This document shows, in pieces, positions 35,640 through 47,859 of a stretch of DNA of 64,000 nucleotides. This stretch comes from Tubulanus polymorphus (taxonomy: Eukaryota; Animalia; Nemertea), in contig NC_134026.1 in assembly GCF_964204645.1 (NCBI RefSeq), forward strand, positions 31,096,150 to 31,160,149. Reading direction: 5' to 3'. Every line of letters starts with the position of its first letter. Position 1 is the first letter of the stretch. The notes under the pieces were generated by a model that made no database searches, was not told the DNA's origin, and saw nothing but the letters and a program-made list of their open reading frames with translations. Both the position numbers and the translations under genes were made by a program.

Positions 35640-38600
35640 ATGGCGGACGAAGAGAAATCTCGTGTTTTGCAATGGAATGAAATGGATTTAGACGACAGAA
35701 TTCTCCTGGTAAAGTCTTAATACGATGTAACAAACCAAGAACAGACAATCATAGCTGTTACATAATTAGAAAACACAGTTATTCAATGTCAGGCGATCTT
35801 AATCTGGGCATCCATTTTTGACTGAAATTGAAACTCAAATCCAAGTCAAATCATCAATTCAACAACTTCAATCATTCATTCACACAACACAACTTCAAAA
35901 CAAAATGTTGGCCTACAACGTTGCATGCAGGTCCAGCATTTAGCATTTAGGGCAATGGAATGAGCAAGTTGGACTACTACACTTGCCAGCCCACCTCAAA
36001 CTGTTTTGCCTTTTTTGGCAATTAATCTGCCGTTTTTGGCGTGACAGATGTTGATGATTGTGATAGATTCTATAGTTGTTTATTTTATAGGCGATATCTA
36101 AATTAGGATGGGCCGAACCGACGATGATCCAAGAGAAAGCGATACCTTTAGCTCTTCAGGGTAAAGATATTCTGTCTCGAGCTCGAACTGGATCCGGAAA
36201 AACTGCTGCATACGCGATACCAGTTATACAGAAAATACTCAACTCTAAACAGGTGGGAGACGAATCTTAGAATAATATAGACCCAGTTTCACCAAATAGT
36301 CCTGCTAAAAACTAAAGTTTTCGGTTACACATTTTTGCTGCAAGTTCAAACTTAACCATTTGATTTGAAGCTTAAATTTTTTCACGAAACTGAACCCGGG
36401 AGCAAAGGAAAATTTCTGAATCCTTGAGAAGAGTTCCTGCATTCTAGAATCCAATCATTTGAAATCTTGATATTTTTAACAGATGTTGATGTTATATTTT
36501 TTACAGTTAGCTACGGAACAGACTGTAAAGGCGTTCGTGCTCACCCCGACGAAGGAACTGTCGCATCAAGCTTACAAAAATATCCTTGATTTAACGGCGA
36601 ATTGTTCTAAAGAAGTAAAATGTATCGATATTTCTGGTCAGATTGAGTTGGACGCTCAGAGACCGATGTTAATGGAACAGCCCGATGTCGTAGTCGGTCC
36701 GCCCAGTCGTATATTCGCGCATTTAAAAGCCGGAAATTTGAAAGTGAAAGAATCGTTAGAACTTCTGGTCATCGATGAAGCAGATTTAGTTTTCTCGTTC
36801 GGTTACGAAAATGACGTCAAACAAATATTGAAATATTTACCGAAGATATTTCAGTCGTTTTTGATGTCAGCGACGCTCAGCGAAGACGTGAAATCACTGA
36901 AAAAACTCGTTCTTCATAATCCGGTGATCTTAAAACTGGAGGAGGCTCGACTTCCGGAAACCAGTCAACTTACGCAGTATCATATCAAGTGAGTTTATAC
37001 GTGAACATATCATTTAGGACTAACTTTAGAGAGACCTGAACACTGGGGTCTTACAGATCAAACAAAATAGGAGGAAATCAGGGAATTTTGCTCAGTAGGA
37101 TAATCGGGCAATTTGAATTTTTAGTATCTTGTTCTTGCTCTGGTGATGAGTGACACAAACAGCCCTCACTGAGGATGTCTTATAATTCGATCAGGGAATT
37201 CAAATTCTAACCTCTTATCTGTAAGAGCCCTATGAAAATGTGTTTATTATAACCAATTGAATTTAGAGAATAGTTTTAAACTATTGCGTTATTTTTGCTC
37301 TATGTTTTAGATGTGAACAAGAAGACAAGTTTGTACTGATTTATGCGCTGTTTAAATTGAGATTGATTTTGGGTAAATCTCTAATCTTCGTCAATAGTGT
37401 TGACAGATGTTATAAATTGAAACTGTTTCTGCGACAGTTCGGAATTGGTACATGCGTTCTGAATTCAGAACTACCCGGAAACTCTCGGTACGTACCGATA
37501 TTAGATACGTTTTAAATGTTTTAGGTACAAAAGATGAATTTGTTTTGATGGTATTTATTACAGGTGTCACATTGTAAATCAGTTCAACGATGGTTTATAC
37601 GATGTATTGATTTCCTCAGATGAACGCGCCGACCAGATTCAACAGAAAGGCAGTCAGAAAAACCGTAAGAAAAGGTACCTATCATTTTATATTAACTGAT
37701 GTTTGAAAAATTATTCTGACATTCTCAAGGAACCTTAGCGGCAATTGATTTCAAATACAGTGAAATGTGGTCGCCTTGTATGCCTCGGATTATTGCGTGT
37801 CCCACACGACAAAATGTTAAAGATTGTCCTAATTTAATCCTTGTGATGACCAGCCATCATCACTCTGGAGAATTTACTTGCTGCCCTCTGGGCCCAGTTC
37901 CATAGTCATGGCTTAGACTTAAGACCAACTTAAGGCCATCTTAGTTCTATAACCAATCTTACAACTTAAGACCAGTGTAAACTAAATTTGGTTCTTTAAC
38001 CAATCTAACAACTTACGACCAGTCTTAAAATCTAAGTCCATTTTTGGACTTAAGTCTCAACTGAGGAACCGGCCCTCTCCGGTCAAATTTACTAGCTGCC
38101 TCAGGGAGTAAATTCATTGGTCTTGTGAAATCGTGATTAGAGTCTCTTCTTGCATTAAGTATTTTATTTTTTCTTAGGAAGAAGGATCTCGAATCAGGAG
38201 TTTCACGTGGTATCGATTTTCAGAAAGTTTCGAACGTAATAAACTTTGATTTTCCGATGGATGTGGATTCGTATATTCACCGAGTTGGACGGACCGCTCG
38301 CGGCGACTGTAAAGGAACCGCTCTATCATTCGTCAGTTTAGACGAAATGCCGCGTCTAGAAGAAATAGAAAATACATTATCTGATAGCACGCGTGAGTAC
38401 AATACACAATAAAACTAATTATATGCAAATATATTCACTGATAAAACTAATTATGCAGATTTATTCATGTGTTTGTTTGTGTTTGATTGGTGGAATTTTC
38501 ATTTATTTCAAGCGGAAGGGACGAGTTTGTTTAAACCGTATAATTTCAAGATGGACGAATTGGAAGGTTTTAGATATAGAGCAAAGGTTCGTATTACAGT

Positions 38601-39877
38601 CAAACTTGACTTAGTCACATTACGGAAGTCATTTGAGTCTCAATTTGTTGTATTTCCAATTCTATTTACTCAGTGTAAGTAGTTTATGTAATTGATCGTC
38701 ACAATGACTTAGTCAACAGGGTCCAGTTCCACAGTTCTGAGTTAAGATTTGACCCTGGGTTAAAACATTGAAAATGAACTAACTTTAACTCAGAGTTAAC
38801 TCTGACTCAGAACTGTGGAACTGGGTCCAGTTTGATAGAATCATTATTTAATGTAACTTTCACTATAATCATTGTATGATGTTAAATGTTTGTAGGATGC
38901 GATGAGAATGGTGACTACGATTGCTATTAAACAGGCTCGAGTCAAAGAAATAAAAGCTGAACTATTAACGTCAGAAAAATTGAAAGTACGTCCTTTAAAA
39001 TGGAATATGAACTCGTTGTCGTTTTTGTTGATGTTAGGAAAGATTTTATGAAGTGAAACGATGTTTATATCTTTTCAGTCGTATTTTGAAGATAATCCTC
39101 GAGATTTACAGGTTTTAAGACACGATACAAACTGTAATCCAATTAGAACTCAGTCTCATATGAAGAATGTACCGGATTATATTAGTAAGTTATATCATTA
39201 TTTACCACAAAAGAAAGCCGTAGGCTGATTTACATACTGTGACAGGTCTTAGATACACTTAGGCAGGACAGTATAGACTTTATTTACAGACAGCCTCTTA
39301 GTTTTGATATTTCAATGTCCTTTGTGAAGAACGCACCTCAAATTATCAAGGTGCTGCCATTAAAAGTCCTATCTTGTCTCTCTTGTTTATGTCTTCTACG
39401 GTTTTGTTTAAAAGTATTTAGAATTCTTCTCTTATTTAAAAGATTTGTGTACTTATAAGTTTCCCTGATTGTACCCTGTTGTGGATGGCAGCGTCAGGGT
39501 TGTAGATTCACACTCTTCAGTCTGGGAGAGGCTCAGTGTTTTACCAGTGTTAGTCATATCGACGACAGTATTTTAATGTATCTCTATTTTGACCAACTCA
39601 ATGGCTGTTTTTCTCTCGTGCAGTTCCGCCGACGCTACAGAAATTAAAACGACCGATTTCTTCGACTAAAACTGGAGTTTGGAAAAAGAAGAGTAAAGAA
39701 CAGGAACGAAGACCTACTCGAGGAGAATTAAAATATCAGGTATGTTTTAACTCCGTGTGAAACCTTTTAACCCGTCGTGAAGCACACGCTCAATAAACTC
39801 CTCTCTCTTTTCAGAAACGAAAAGCCGATCCTCTGAAAAGTTTTGAATTCAGAACAGAAGCCAAAAGAAAGAAATGA
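35640..39877 (+). CDS. DDX56: DEAD-box RNA helicase DDX56/Dbp9, multi-exon
   Basis: [32 protein letters not shown]; LTPTKEL; [14 protein letters not shown]; MSATL; [10 protein letters not shown]; [10 protein letters not shown]; [12 protein letters not shown]; [15 protein letters not shown]. Confidence 0.97.
38720..38827. mobile_element. MITE family B; related copies ~30420-30640, 50025-50145, 50482-50585, 58592-58700, 60559-60615, 63756-63840
   Basis: GGTCCAGTTCCACAGTT...AACTGTGGAACTGGGTC termini, flanked by CAG on both sides here. Confidence 0.8.
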
Positions 39878-40081: not shown

Positions 40082-41847
40082 TTATGCTAATATTTCAACC
40101 ATTTGGTTAATGATACTGTCTAATCTATCGGCAGGAATAATCATAACGGTTCTGTACGAGTCGAATTCCTCGTCCTCATCGTCCCAGTCTCCTCCGACAG
40201 CGGTATCCTTCTCACTGTTCACGCAATACGAGAAATTAAATATCGCCTCCTGAAATAACAATGATGAACAAATTAAACTGAATCTGAAGACTCTGGAAAA
40301 ACCTCTCAAAAACATAAACAGGGAAGAGTGGAGATCTAGGAAGCTAAGAGTCTAAAGGAACAGTCGGGTTATTTTCCAGGTCACATTCCTGTTCAGCGAA
40401 AGAAACATTTTGCATTTGGAATACAATAGATTCAATTTCAACGTGAATGAGTTTAGTCAAATTTGCAGGTTTCAACGACATTTATCTTGACAAAAAGGCA
40501 GGAAAGGTAAGGGGCTGGACCGCCTGACATTACCACCTAAATTTCGTCCTTGATTAAAGTAAAACCTGAATCTACCTGGAAAAAGAGTTCCTCCTCCGCG
40601 TTTTGGAAGATCAGTTCCAACGATTCATCTTTCTTTTTCATCTTCGATTTTGTGTCCTTTAAAACGTTCGTTTTACTGATCATTAAAAAGTTCTTGAATT
40701 CGAATTTCATTTTCTTCTGATTCGCTTTCTCAATTTCCTTTCTACAAAATTAAGCGATCATTTTAACGATGACGATAAGACGTATTGAGGATATTTTCAG
40801 AAACTGAACGAAGATTTTCTACTAACTTTAACGCTTGAAACGAAGGTAAAGCTATTTGTGGCGGGATATTGATGAATCTTTCGTTGATTAAAAATCCTAA
40901 ACATTGTCGCGAATCGCTGAAATAATTCTTAAACTGATCTCTTTTATTACAATCATTGCACCTTTCTGTTAACGTCGAGACCATTTGTTTTACGAAATCA
41001 GCGTCCTGTAATGGAATAAATGAATTTGATAATTTACAATCAAAGAGCATCCGATTTACTTGGTTTCCGATTAGCAAATAATCTCTACCTTTTTGACGGT
41101 AACATTGATTACAGAAATGACACCGAAAACTTCATTAGAATCGCTGATATCTTCATCATCTTCTTCTTCTGATAATTCACATTGCTATAGAATATAAGTT
41201 CAGGTTTATTAAGCGTCTGCTCAAATCTCGTTTTAATGTTCACTTTACAATGATGATACAGACTTACTTTTATGATACTTCCGACATAATTTTGGGCGAT
41301 TATCATATCTGACATTTCTGTCAGGTCAATATTGGCTTTGATAAACAGCTGAAAATAAAACAAAAAAGTTCAAATATAAATCATTTATAAGCTTTTTAAA
41401 TCTTTTAAGCCGTAAGGAATGTAAATAATTTAAGCCTTCAATAATTTTGATGGGAATTTTTAAAATGGTTTTCATTCAAAGACTTTAATTTACCTGTTGT
41501 AATAGTCTACGGATGCCATGGAAATCACTGTCATCTGCTGTTCTCGCTTCAAAATCAATTTGAATCTCCTGCAAAAAAGTAGCACACGATGGATTCGAAC
41601 CCAGTTGATAAAACGCCACTAGTTAACATATGAGACTAGGGTCGAATCCCATAAATATTCCATAACAACATGATTTAATATGGAATTTGGATCGATGGAT
41701 TACCTTTTCCAACATTTCGTCATCACTGTTTTCACTTTCATCGTCATCCTCACTGTCATTTTCCTCCACATCTGGGTCGTTAGTCTCTTCATTTTCCAAT
41801 TTTTTCATTTCATCCTCGACCGCTCGCTTTTTCCTGGGCGCAGCCAT
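40082..41847 (-). CDS. BCCIP: BRCA2 and CDKN1A-interacting protein (BCCIP/Bcp1), multi-exon
   Basis: Acidic N-terminus; IQIDFEARTADDSDFHGIRRLLQQLF; EMSDMIIAQNYVGSIIK; LGFLINERFINIPPQIALP; FQNAEEELF; VGGDW. Confidence 0.96.
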
Positions 41848-42104: not shown

Positions 42105-45100
42105 ATGAATGAATTAGTTTTCCTATGGGGCCCATCAAATGTGGTAAGAAATATAAGATGGAAGAAATATTCTATACGCTATCATGCCATGGCTTATGAG
42201 AGTGTCCGTAGTTTATTCTGGATTTATGTGTGGCCAAAACGAATGCACCCAGTAGTTTTTCAAATGCCACCTAGATGGCGGCAAAGTCTGGTCGAATATT
42301 TTTTCGGAATCGCTTGCGGTCAAACGCCGGGACGATTAGAAAATAATTGATAATTCACGAATTTCGTTCTCATTTTCAGGGGAAATCGATTCACTGTCAT
42401 TCTTTATCGGGTTTGAGTTTATCATCGACGAAATGGTTCGCAGAAAATCCCGAATCAGGATTGCGTTCATTTATTATGCACGCAACATCACTAATCAAAG
42501 AGGTAAAAATGCATTTTTGTTGCCTTTTTAATGTTTTTCACTTTGTTTTGTTGAAACTTTAGAACTCTTTGATTTTAGAGTAAGAAAGTCATTATAGATG
42601 ATGACACCACATTGAAAGTTCGTAAAGCATTTATTGACTTCATAAAGAAGAAGGTATTTAAGAGATTTTATGCCAATGATGATAGTGAAAATTATGAAAT
42701 CTGAAGTATATGTTGTCCATGATTTCAGTTGGATATAAGATGCAAGTTTTCGTGCATCAAATGCTTCCCAAAGTTCGGTACAGATCAACTATTATGGGCT
42801 AGAGAATTCAGGAGAGCCGAGATAGCAAACGAAAGCATTGAAAGAGTCCATATTACTATTGACGATGGCGTCTTAGACTCGTGGAAATATAACGATAGTC
42901 AATTACATTGTTTACCAGGTTAAACATACACATGATATTCAGAATCGTTTTGTAAAAAAAAATATTTCAATCCTTTTCAAAATTCATCTGTTTGATATTT
43001 GTAGACTGTCCATCGAAAACCGAGGAAAACTTAGAGATTACAGAAATAAAGTTGCCTTTGATCTTTCATTCGTTTTATAAGGTCATCCATTCTCCTATTT
43101 GAATAACGAACTCATAGATCGTCATATGTCACGTACTAAGTATGTTTTGTTGTATGTTTACAGGCAGATAAACCATGTTTATTAATTGAACGCGAATGTT
43201 TTATAAATACTGATGCTTCAAAACTTAAAAACATCATTTCTCATTGGTTGAATTTAAACCCTATAGGATGGATAGTAGTAATTACTCCTTATTCACCAGG
43301 TATAGTATATATCTTGCACATTTTGAGATGAAATATAGTGGAAAATGTTATGCAGAATGAGTTTGTTTACGGTGCTATTTCAGGATCAAGTTTTCAATCA
43401 CGTTTATCAAAACAGAATGAAGTTCTTAGACATTTTATCACGCAGGTAAATGAGGAAAGTGTTTGTCGATTCTTTCGATATTATGAATTTTCAAATTGAA
43501 TGAACGGTTGTTTTTTAAATACAGTTAGAAGTTCCGATTTATGAAGTGAGTTTAGATGAAGCAATCGGAAAGAGCTCATTTTTACAGCCTCCACAAAGTG
43601 GATTATTAGCATTCATTCATAGATTGTTCCTCATCAATTTACATCATAAGGTAATTAATAATTATCACACTATAGACTCCTTACTAAATTCGGTGCATTT
43701 ACTGAAAAGGTTCGCTTGTTAATTCACTACTGAACAAGGCAGGACCAATTGTATTTACAGTAGATATGTCCAGTAATTGTCAGTAATCATGATTTTCCTC
43801 TAATAGAGAATTGTTTATACTTCAGTACACGTTGCTTCTGTGTCAGTCTCCAAATCTCATCAAATGTGCAATAAATATTGGAATGAAATACATGAAGGTA
43901 AAATAACGAAATGAAAATATTCCTGAACGTTCGAGAAAATTGCATTCACTCGATATTTTACCTGTTTCAGAATGAAAAAGTGTTAAAAGACCCTAAACTG
44001 GTATGTCTTGAAATAGAAAGCTCAATTTCAGTCACTGGATTCGAGAAATGGGTCATAGTTTTCACAATTAATGTTACAGATAGTGTGCAATCAGGCATTT
44101 AATAAACCTGCAATACCCGAGATGTTGTCAAGCATAGAAACTAAATGGATGTTGGATACAGAGCCAGATTTAACTATACCTCTACAACATCTAAACAGAC
44201 GGCAAACTGAAAACAACTGGCTTCATATCCACCACGATGTTGGACACGGGATTTCTGTGCATCTATTCTGCAAAGATGAAATGACGTTAGGAAGGTATGA
44301 TGAAATTTCTCGTCAAGTTCAGATCACCAGCATTGAACACGAAATAAGATTTAGATTGAATATTTTTTCTGATCTGATGCAGATTCACTGAGAAGCACAT
44401 CGAAACGAGTACTCCAATACATGAATCAGGAAGTAGACTAGTACCAGACACAGCCGACCGAGTGGAGTTTCTCAACCCGACTTTTGATCAAGATGAAAGT
44501 ATTCTAGAAACGACGACATCTGAACAACGTCCCCGTGAAAACAGATCAATAGAATCATCGAAACCTAAGACAGTTGTTTTATCATCACCTAATAAACGTC
44601 AATTACCGGCTTGGATGAATACATCGCCTAAAAAACATAAATATGTCAAACGGTAAATATAGGTCCCACACCTGAAGAGTAAAACTTCAAGGTCTCTTTT
44701 TTCTTGCTGGTGACAAATGGCACGAGAAACTCCTTCAGAAGAAACAGAGGGAATTGTGGTTCCCTGATTTTTATGAATCCAGCACAGTCATGATTAGGTG
44801 CAATGAGGGTGGATTCTAAAATGCATGAATGTTACACAAGGTTTTGATGAATCTTTGATTCAATTGTTTTCATATGGATTTATTTTTTTAGAGGAGTTAT
44901 AACAACTAAATATATCCTGACTCCTGATGAACTTGTACAAGTTGCTAAACAAGTATTGGACCAGGTAAACACTGAATTAATGTTCAAATAATCAATGAAT
45001 GTTTTTATTTTGATTTGTTGTTGATATTTGTTTTAGGAAAATAGTGATGAGGAAATGACGGAAATGCAGCAGCCTGTTACAGATGCACCAGATCAGCAGC

Positions 45101-45636
45101 AGCCTGTTAAAGATGCAATGGATCAGCAGCTCCCTGTTACAGGTGCAATGGATCAACAGCTACCTGTTACAGGTGCAATGGATCAGCAGCAGCCTGTTAA
45201 AGATGCAATGGATCAGCAGCTCCCTGTTACAGGTGCAATGGATCAGCAGCTACCTGTTACAGGTGCAATGGATCAGCAGCTACCTGTTACAGGTGCAATG
45301 GATCAGCAGCTCCCTGTTACAGGTGCAATGGATCAGCAGCTACCTGTTACAGGTGCAATGGATCAGCAGCTACCTGTTACAGGTGCAATGGATCAGCAGC
45401 TACCTGTTAGAGGTGCAATGGATCAGCAGCTACCTGTTACAGGTGCAATGGATCAGCAGCTACATGTTACAGGTGCAATGGATCAGCAGCTACCTGTTAC
45501 AGATGCACCAGATCTAGCAAACAGCAGTAAACATAGACTTGAAGAAGATAAGACGGATCAAAACCAGAAACTGAATCCAATCTCGAATAATGTAAAGAAA
45601 CAAACTGAAATCGATTTGTCATTTTTAGATTTTTGA
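42105..45636 (+). CDS. Uncharacterised polynucleotide-kinase-like protein: P-loop kinase, degenerate HAD-like domain, Ku-binding/CYREN-like module, 10-aa repeat tail (14 exons)
   Basis: Phase-consistent GT-AG exons 42105-42143, 42380-42502, 42579-42653, 42729-42918, 43005-43081, 43164-43299, 43384-43445, 43525-43650, 43826-43897, 43971-44000, 44080-44294, ~44382-44652, ~44892-44964, 45037-45636. Motifs: ELVFLWGPSNV|GKS, KKVIIDDDTTLKVRKAF, QPPQSGLL, CAINIGMKY, KRQLPAWM, TKYILTPDELVQVAKQVL. Confidence 0.8.
45065..45513 (+). repeat. Coding 30-bp tandem repeat (AMDQQLPVTG), ~15 copies
   Basis: In frame within the last exon of the PNK-like gene. Confidence 0.9.
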
Positions 45637-45728
45637 TCTTTTTATTGCGATTTTTATATTTTAATAAAATATACACAGGAAAGTTTTAAATGCAAGTTTT
45701 GGTAAATTGAATGAGGGTTGAATCGAGG

Positions 45729-47718
45729 TTAGAATGATTGAACAGATTTTAAACAGCGATCTTTGAAAAACACATGATTCTTAGCTTTGATTTGTTTGGC
45801 GACTGATTTGAAGAAAGACGTCAGGGCTGGAGTGTTTTTCGGTCTTTTTTTCATTGGTTCATCATCATCTTCATCATCCCTGAAACATTAGAGACATCAT
45901 CACTATAATCATCTATACTGGAATTGATGTTTTGACAAATATTGAATTAGTCCAATTTGCTGAGACGAGCATCATGTTGATAACAAATCAAAATGATCTA
46001 CATCGATGGTAAAATAAATTAGAAATTGGGACTTCAAAAAGAGATGACTTCAGAAATTTGACTGAGTTTGACTCGTGAACATACCAATGAACAGGAACAC
46101 ATTTCTTCTCTATTGCGGAGTATGCTGTAGACCAACTTATACGCACAAAATGTGGAAAACCAAATACTGGATCAATACTGTCGACCATGAACTTCTTAGT
46201 TTGTGGATCTGGAAGGAGAAAAATTTATACTGACGAAATATCAACTTAAAATCAGCATCAAATTAATAGATTTTGAAGAAGGGGACATTCATTCCTAAAG
46301 ATGGATGTATTTTAGGCATTATTTACAAAGAAAAGATGGTCAAATTTCGTCCCCTCTTCTTTAAACACGTATATGTACTTTATAAATGGGAATTTAAACA
46401 GTACCTGCAGGATAACCCGAACCAAAACCACCTTCTGGAACTTTGATCTTTTCACCCTCAGTAAATTCCCATGATTTGGTGGCCCTATCTCTCGCTACCT
46501 AGAAATAAATGTTTGTAATAATCAAAAATACGATCGTCATAAACTATAGGAAATAATATCGAAATATAACTTACTTTAGCACAAATACTGGCAGCACTGA
46601 CTATAGGGTAGATACTATCAGCCTTTTTAGCTACTGTGATATTCAAATTTGGGAATATTTTCGATAGTTTCTCCTGATATTTCTCGGGAGGTCCAACTGT
46701 ATCTACATAAACCTATAACGTAACAGATAATCTATCACTGAGTTCTCAGTGTAACATCTAATGTAATATCTAATGTAATACCTAGTTAAATATCTAGTGT
46801 AAAATATCTAGTGTAAAATATCTAATGTAACATCTTGTGTAATATCTAATGTAATACCTAGTTAAATATCTAGTATAATATCTAATGTAAAATACCTAGT
46901 GTAATATCTAATGTAATATCTAATATAATGACTGGTGTAATGTCTAGTGTAATACCTAGTGTAATATCTAATGTAATGGCTGGTGTAATATCTAGTGTAA
47001 TACCTCAGTTAGATTGACACCTCTTTCAATGGACCTCTGTATGAGACCAATAGCTGTATCATGAGATATCGCATTCAGATTATATTTCGCTCTGGAAAAT
47101 AAATAAGAAATAGAGAAAATAGAGACGACTTCTTGAGTTTGAATGTGGAAACTTTGTAAATCTGACAACCTTTTCAGCATACTAGTTGATATATAGTGAG
47201 GTGAGAGTATATCAACTGTCCAACCAATCATTTCTTCTGCTTCTTCTAATTTTGTAAATAATTCTTCGCGTTGTTCTTCAGTCAAAGTCTTTGAATCTGT
47301 TATAATGAAAATATATCGAATATTGCTATTTCAATTCGAATTCGGTCAAACTTGTGACACCTATCAACATCATATATTCTACTCACCCGCAAAACCAATT
47401 TCTTTTAATTTGTCGTTGCTTGCAACTGGGCAATATGATATTCCATACACCATCGGGCCTAAAATCAAAATCATACATCATTAATATAGCGTCCGGCGTT
47501 ATAGGACCCGAACATCGACAAACTTTCCACCAGCTGGTGCTGCCATCGGGCGGTATTAACGAAAATTAAACATATATATTTGCTTATTTACCTAAAACTG
47601 GACCCCTTCCAGCTTCATCAATACCCAGACAACACGGTTCAACCTTACATATCTCCGGAACATCACATTCTAATTTGAGATTTTGAGTATTATTATCCGT
47701 GAAACGTTTTATATCCAT
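45729..47718 (-). CDS. RNASEH2A: Ribonuclease H2 subunit A, multi-exon
   Basis: [18 protein letters not shown]; [13 protein letters not shown]; [12 protein letters not shown]; [13 protein letters not shown]; [21 protein letters not shown]; GSGYPADP; C-terminal PIP-like LTSFF. Confidence 0.97.
46748..47003. repeat. Intronic ~13-bp degenerate tandem repeat
   Basis: (TGTAATAYCTAR)n directly abutting a RNASEH2A splice donor. Confidence 0.85.
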
Positions 47719-47859
47719 CTTCATTCGGAGGAAAGTCCAATAAAATTCAATTCAATTCAAACCGGAAGCAGGAAGTGTTCAACTGGTTGAACTAAAAACC
47801 GAAACGAAACTACATTGAATACTATTTTCTGGAAAATTTCTGAAGAAAATAATTTGAAG
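47719..47859. promoter_or_regulatory. ~140-bp bidirectional promoter RNASEH2A/VPS51 with ETS-like sites
   Basis: Divergent ATGs at 47718 and 47860; ACCGGAAGCAGGAAGTG at 47761-47777. Confidence 0.6.

Follow-up and report, generated by a model that had tools for sequence, protein, structure and literature searches.

LOC141899192 of the nemertean Tubulanus polymorphus, a candidate long relative of the Ku-binding protein CYREN/MRI with a polynucleotide kinase-like head

Introduction

CYREN/MRI (C7orf49) is a vertebrate regulator of non-homologous end joining (NHEJ), 157 amino acids long. It has been studied as a small disordered vertebrate protein, and its opposite effects on end joining lack an explanation. 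In a 64,000-nt stretch of the Tubulanus polymorphus genome (contig NC_134026.1; hereafter the window, to whose first letter all coordinates refer), a gene with a head resembling polynucleotide kinase (PNK) continues into a tail that carries motifs resembling those of CYREN. A reading made from the sequence alone had taken the product for an end-healing kinase recruited through Ku, or for a longer ancestral form of CYREN. Which of these, if either, does the locus encode? The answer we find most likely is a Ku-binding, multimerising adaptor of the CYREN type with a pseudoenzyme head.

Gene structure and transcript support

Inspection of splice sites first yielded a single open frame of 13 exons (42380-45636). 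To these the contigs of run X4 (a run whose type is not on record) added a first exon ending at 42143, giving a model with all 14 exons in frame and no internal stops (Table 1). In X4 contigs 12 of the 13 modelled introns are spliced out at GT..AG boundaries, and run X1 covers the same DNA without breaks. One X4 contig of 1113 nt (43162-45162) spans eight joints, so that the exons for the HAD domain, the Ku-binding motif (KBM) and the second conserved block, together with the start of the last exon, lie on a single spliced contig; the proposed fusion of the tail thus held up as far as the HAD exons. The sole joint covered by no X4 contig is that between the kinase and HAD exons (43081>43164). 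These exons are joined in the RefSeq model of LOC141899192 (P0001), and in the homologue P0026 all parts are on one 2295-nt contig.

From its residue 14 our model is identical to P0001 from residue 21 of the latter. We rejected the RefSeq first exon in favour of 42105-42143, which both the X4 joint and the homologous N-termini support. Exon 1 and the start of exon 2 encode a complete GxxxxGKS Walker A (42129-42388) in this RNA-supported model; the RefSeq model is left without an intact P-loop because it uses a different first exon. The residues of that RefSeq exon match a frame near 40450, inside the BCCIP span. Further along, the disordered tail contains a 30-nt tandem repeat, none of which was seen in the homologues when the alignment was inspected by eye. 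Pfam matches to DUF3203 and eIF3a both arise from this repeat and were rejected.

Table 1. Features of the LOC141899192 gene and its neighbours, in window coordinates.
Feature	Position	Strand	Evidence or remark
Whole coding span, 14 exons, 695 aa	42105..45636	+	In-frame model; 12/13 joints in X4 contigs
Exon 1, coding part	42105..42143	+	Joint 42143>42380 in X4; homologous N-termini
Exons 1-5	42105-42143, 42380-42502, 42579-42653, 42729-42918, 43005-43081	+	
Exons 6-10	43164-43299, 43384-43445, 43525-43650, 43826-43897, 43971-44000	+	
Exons 11-14	44080-44294, 44383-44652, 44892-44964, 45037-45636	+	
Predicted PNK-type P-loop kinase fold (P0001 about 8-168)	42105..43081	+	Foldseek, VIA, profile
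Predicted HAD IIIA / PNK 3'-phosphatase-like fold (P0001 177-323)	43164..44097, end approximate	+	VIA
Third conserved subdomain (P0001 about 325-411): strands, hairpin, long helix	44100..44450, approximate	+	
Putative APLF-type Ku-binding motif RQLPAWM, Met after Trp	44597..44617	+	22.0 bits, homologue profile
MuD-like block TKYILTPDELVQVAKQVL: short extended segment then helix	44905..44958	+	37.5 bits, homologue profile
C-terminal motif IDLSFLDF*	45610..45636	+	16.4 bits over 7 positions, homologue profile
Tandem repeat, 30-nt unit (10 aa), 14.7 copies, disordered tail	45066..45507	+	
BCCIP (Pfam BCCIP)	40082-41847	-	Head to head with LOC141899192 gene (42105, +)
RNase HII-family gene (RNASEH2A-like)	45692-47751	-	Tail to tail with LOC141899192 gene
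DEAD-box helicase, upstream	about 36091-39230	+	
VPS51, downstream	from 48097	+	

A family of uncharacterized homologues

A phmmer search with P0001 residues 21-503 against 1.84 billion representatives (E up to 0.001) returned 39 homologues. Records were examined for 30 of these, and the 22 with names are all 'uncharacterized', 'hypothetical' or similar. They come from a nemertean, gastropods, bivalves, a brachiopod, annelids, echinoderms, hemichordates, amphioxus and the coral Acropora; no vertebrate, arthropod or nematode is among the 22, which, from one phmmer search with a divergent query, is not proof of absence. Word-seeded searches, also with the 31-row profile, retrieved only the LOC141899192 protein itself and are therefore uninformative on absence in vertebrates. 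A tree of 28 rows built on the folded part of the proteins groups the molluscs (100/99) and the hemichordates (100/99), as expected for one vertically inherited gene; it leaves the spiralian base open and places Tubulanus on a long branch. In the mostly open-access literature searched, we found no description of a long, invertebrate or PNK-fold CYREN, nor of the LOC141899192 family. The family is real and conserved, and apparently undescribed; for many animals whose records all read 'uncharacterized' it points to a candidate factor in NHEJ.

Some members depart from the common layout. In the distant P0036, which HHalign matches to A1 across both folded domains (E 6e-31), the KBM is present and the second block absent. 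In Acropora P0034 (residues 474-510) and in P0040, an insert with a SWIM-type zinc finger pattern separates the folded head from the tail motifs, recognized in P0034 by Pfam above the cut-off and in P0040 by eye; the two cluster in the tree (96/97), and theirs may be an older domain layout. P0032 from Dimorphilus has an intact Walker A and the C-terminal hydrophobic-acidic motif, yet has lost the KBM and the block.

Conservation of the tail motifs

The three tail motifs occupy exons 12-14 and were all located where the sequence-only reading had placed them. In exon 12, NKRQLPAWM (44591-44617; KBM at model residue 454) is followed by a basic stretch, and its RQLPAW was correctly recognized there as an APLF-type Ku80-binding motif (A-KBM), R-x-L-P-x-W, by sequence. 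The KBM core is present in 28 of the 30 homologues that reach this region and, counted over all 39, reads [LIV]PxW[ML] in 27 and RxPPxW in one more; the 11 that lack it comprise nine that are short or end earlier and two long proteins (Dimorphilus and Acropora). The full R-x-[LIVP]-P-x-W, with its Arg, is found in 21 of 39, and among 31 aligned rows Pro is kept in 29, Trp in 28 and Met in 24. The pattern of the second block, encoded in Tubulanus by exon 44892-44964, occurs in 25 of 39 homologues and by eye also in Acropora and in the Diadema isoform P0047. The C-terminal pattern occurs in 14 of 39, some others have a looser variant, and IDLSFLDF* is a shortened version of the family end D[LF]S[FI]LD[DE]IF.

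Motif conservation in homologues, a point that the sequence-only reading had proposed to check, is therefore seen across phyla for all three. The mean share of the commonest residue over 30 homologues is 0.64 for the KBM, 0.58 for the block and 0.45 for the C-terminal end, against 0.14, 0.22 and 0.17 for linkers and tail and 0.36 and 0.45 for the folded domains. Among 11,700 shuffled homologues, 0.8% contained the KBM core, 1.9% RxxPxW and none the second block. RxxPxW is reported to be carried by over 600 human proteins (PMC4831024) and, taken by itself as a sequence pattern, is weak evidence, being common by chance.

Comparison with CYREN/MRI

Pfam contains an MRI model; our Pfam scan of 47 proteins, 12 exons and 6 fragments, the filters of which drop weak matches, gave no family named MRI. 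The bioRxiv preprint 10.64898/2026.07.22.740027 describes the MuD of MRI as residues 49-81, a strand (53-57) plus a helix needed for multimerisation and NHEJ, naming 54-YCMN-57 in the strand and V64, L66, I68 and L69 in the helix. It further reports that Met after the KBM Trp raises the affinity of MRI for Ku80 over 30-fold and that both MRI motifs, the KBM and the C-terminal one, contact the Ku80 vWA domain.

We built profiles from homologues only, using pattern-selected rows (25 for the KBM, 25 for the block, 14 for the C-terminus) and leaving out the Tubulanus protein, whose scores are given in Table 1. Human MRI was represented by the eight MuD residues named above and by two short peptides from PMC4831024, those of the KBM and the XLF-like motif, and not by a full CYREN sequence; we chose the register. 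On the KBM profile MRI scores 15.2, WRN-nA 15.3 and WRN-cA 8.1 bits, which fails to separate MRI from WRN-nA. On the block profile the MuD residues of MRI score 19.9 bits, a value reached in 0 of 400,000 random draws, and slid by 1 or 2 (four registers) they fall to between -12.5 and -21.8 bits; the parallel that had been drawn between the second motif and the CYREN block is borne out by this comparison. The C-terminus had been called loosely CYREN-like, and here too the profile agrees, with +4.7 bits for the MRI peptide (P 4e-4) against -16.5 for XLF, -5.5 for WRN-X and -18.6 for PAXX. The spacing from Trp to Tyr is 28-60 in 24 of 25 rows and 8 in one; it is 38 in MRI and, shorter than that, 20 in Tubulanus. 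Two hemichordate rows read YCMNE where MRI has 54-YCMN-57. At all three motifs the published residues of human MRI agree with the family profiles, and the order and spacing are alike; since register and rows were author-chosen, the scores are strong hints and not a formal homology test.

Could such a likeness have arisen by convergence, in an independent Ku-binding factor outside the ancestry of vertebrate CYREN? The KBM is a short motif shared by the unrelated APLF, WRN and MRI (PMC4831024), the SWIM-like insert in P0034 and P0040 implies that modules move, the Pfam scan with its filters gave no MRI family, and neither phmmer nor the word-seeded searches (which retrieved only the query protein) produced a bridging vertebrate sequence. 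We nevertheless consider convergence quite unlikely, given that it would have to produce three motifs in one order at like spacing, one of them not Ku-binding, as well as the hemichordate YCMNE at its MRI place and a C-terminal profile that prefers MRI over XLF, WRN-X and PAXX. Homology of the LOC141899192 family with CYREN is, as far as sequence goes, very probable.

A second alternative is that the tail motifs bind a partner other than Ku and that the protein has its role elsewhere than in end joining, perhaps in repairing RNA ends or in nucleotide signalling. Such roles are known for kinase-phosphatases of the T4 order, the top fold matches of the head include RNA kinases (Trl1, bacterial Pnkp) and T4 Pnkp, and, as noted above, RxxPxW is common by chance. 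Against this, the conserved residues are the ones that define an A-KBM, including the Met reported to raise affinity; the A-KBM is accompanied by MRI-type MuD and C-terminal motifs; and no ligase neighbour or RNA-repair context is present within the window. We judge a non-Ku role improbable, and Ku binding by the family, inferred from its motifs, to be highly likely.

With CYREN/MRI the Tubulanus protein shares the succession of an A-KBM, a strand-helix MuD (about 38 residues on in MRI) and a disordered tail ending in a hydrophobic-acidic-IF motif; the AlphaFold2 model described below has the block helix at 490-509 (pLDDT about 90 at 491-500). It differs in that about 450 residues with three folded units precede the module, and in its longer tail. 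CYREN is small and mostly disordered, with an N-terminal KBM; this protein has 695 aa, a folded head of about 400 residues and an internal KBM, and for this reason we class it as a long CYREN relative and not as CYREN proper. WRN and APLF likewise carry a KBM of the same type adjoining a folded nucleic-acid domain (PMC4831024), but none of their nuclease, helicase, FHA and PBZ domains was seen in the Tubulanus protein, and the C-terminal motif of its family fits MRI better than WRN-X. With conserved motifs in CYREN order spliced to HAD exons, the earlier suggestion of a longer ancestral form of CYREN is the reading that fits best.

Fold of the head

AlphaFold2 run on the 31-row alignment gave a model (pTM 0.61) in which most of residues 31-410 are folded with confidence; a single-sequence model had a pLDDT of 33 and was unusable. 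Foldseek placed mouse PNKP first for the predicted model (E 2e-4), followed by T4 Pnkp over both domains. VIA-align matched the predicted kinase part, residues 8-168, to polynucleotide and RNA kinases at Z 9.3-9.8 (rmsd 3.0-3.5 over 122-146 residues), among them 4gp6 (Z 9.8, rmsd 3.4 over 140) and the T4 kinase 1ly1 (Z 9.4, rmsd 3.0 over 122), and to fungal kinases at Z 11.6-12 over looser ranges; profile matches to PNKP kinase had E values of 0.016 and 0.0026. The second predicted domain, residues 177-323, aligned with HAD IIIA phosphatases (GmhB 2gmw, Z 10.7, rmsd 2.7 over 143), and an Atlas feature search returned PNK3P clusters at 0.84-0.86, a lead only. Phage PNKs and NRK-1 were matched in a viral structure search. 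The third subdomain has pLDDT block means of 78-95 and a conservation of 0.32.

In the model the kinase precedes the HAD domain. This is the order of T4 Pnkp, with its N-terminal kinase then phosphatase (PMC2831316, PMC3592404), and not the mammalian order of FHA, phosphatase and kinase; no FHA domain was seen in the Tubulanus protein, the N-terminus of which starts at the kinase strand. Mammalian PNKP thus resembles it in the kinase fold, where it gives the best Foldseek and profile matches, and, as a lead only, in a PNK3P-like HAD fold, but has the opposite domain order, an FHA domain where Tubulanus has Ku-type motifs instead, and the phosphatase motifs and general-base Asp that the Tubulanus family has lost. 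The closer parallel in layout is with T4 Pnkp and other phage, viral and bacterial kinase-phosphatases (Pnkp1, baculovirus NRK-1), in which an N-terminal P-loop kinase is likewise followed by HAD and both domains aligned in one run at 8-12% identity. From these the Tubulanus protein differs by its extra subdomain and CYREN-like tail, and its family by having no equivalents of DxDxT, Lys258 and Asp278.

Catalytic residues of the head

The description of the protein as an end-healing kinase was not supported, as it stood, by comparison with the homologues. The T4 phosphatase requires Asp165, Asp167, Lys258 and Asp278 (PMC3592404). In the 30 rows with residues at these places the HAD DxD is found in none (the family has mostly QWE, Tubulanus ERE), and the GD motif and the Lys at the motif-III place are likewise lost in all 30. 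The residues required in T4 being missing throughout, the HAD phosphatase is predicted, from sequence, to be very likely dead.

For the kinase the evidence is mixed. Tubulanus retains Walker A and VIIDDD; a strict Walker A is found in our model and in 13 of 39 homologues, with a partial one in five, and most rows have Asp at the Walker-B-like place. The column of the general-base Asp (T4 D35, mouse D396; author-chosen register) has Asp in 0 of 19 rows. One place on, 15 of 19 rows have an acidic E or D; Tubulanus has no acidic residue at either place. HMMER gaps this loop differently, likewise without a conserved Asp there. Asp35 is described as essential in the T4 kinase (PMC2831316), and mouse PNKP D396N is reported to retain 23% activity (PMC2764422). 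GK[ST] is lost in Littorina, Lymnaea and related gastropod rows that retain the KBM and block, and several molluscs with all three tail motifs have a degraded P-loop.

These residues bear on the possibility of an active 5'-polynucleotide kinase with a dead phosphatase half, recruited to Ku by the CYREN-like tail as a second end-healing route beside PNKP-XRCC4. The complete Walker A, the Asp at the Walker-B-like place, the PNKP and other polynucleotide kinases at the top of the structural and profile matches, and a D396N mutant that is not fully dead are all in its favour, and Walker A, the neighbouring acidic residue and the D396N activity make some kinase or NTP-binding activity possible. The general base that is essential in T4 is however missing from every row, with no acidic residue at that position or the next in Tubulanus itself, and the molluscs have degraded their P-loop while keeping the tail intact. 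Whatever the family has in common as its function cannot depend on kinase activity; such activity of the head appears doubtful from its residues, and an active, Ku-recruited kinase unlikely. That the head is without meaningful catalysis we consider probable.

A proposed mechanism and its implications

We favour, with moderate confidence, a long and likely ancestral relative of CYREN/MRI in which the tail docks Ku and multimerises and the PNK-fold head serves as a non-catalytic DNA-end binding unit. The KBM would enter the Ku80 vWA pocket, probably tightly because Met follows the Trp; KBM classes are described in 10.1101/2023.12.12.570754. The second block would dimerise or multimerise the protein as the MRI MuD does, giving multivalent Ku contact on both ends, and the C-terminal motif would occupy a second Ku80 site. 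The head may grip or read overhangs, or ends bearing a 5'-OH or 3'-phosphate, and leave them unhealed; it would thus protect DNA ends or gate their processing.

Vertebrate CYREN would then be derived by loss of the head. Parsimony favours such a loss, since the long form occurs among spiralians, ambulacrarians and amphioxus, and a cnidarian protein combines the head with the block. CYREN is reported to inhibit NHEJ in S/G2 at certain breaks and to promote it in G0/G1 (PMC12970561), and an end-reading head would provide a physical basis for such selectivity. DNA-PKcs is described from many of the phyla concerned, namely echinoderms, molluscs, annelids and cnidarians (PMC8549938). The boldest form of this proposal, an ancient animal end-joining factor in which a T4-order PNK was turned into a DNA-end sensor with Ku-binding and multimerising motifs, and of which CYREN is the decapitated remnant, we put forward tentatively, as having a little under an even chance. 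If it is true, the chemistry of DNA ends would be read directly on Ku in invertebrates, and the head would point to the kind of end, by chemistry or overhang, to which CYREN-type regulation first responded.

The long form conserved among spiralians, echinoderms, hemichordates and amphioxus would give CYREN an origin and tie it to a fold that handles DNA ends. Its deep conservation marks the residues that are important: the KBM with its Met, the MuD (described only in 2026) and the C-terminal motif. It also offers a folded, testable protein with which to ask what CYREN-type regulation senses.

Genomic neighbourhood

BCCIP, which has a role in homologous recombination, lies head to head with the LOC141899192 gene. 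The two start codons are 258 bases apart and X4 contigs reach 41845 and 42012, which makes a shared promoter likely in this genome. On the other side, 56 bases separate the LOC141899192 stop codon at 45636 from position 45692, up to which a spliced contig of the RNase HII-family gene extends. The upstream DEAD-box helicase we take to be DDX56-like. An intron of the RNase HII-family gene holds a 12-bp tandem array of 20.8 copies (46748-47002).
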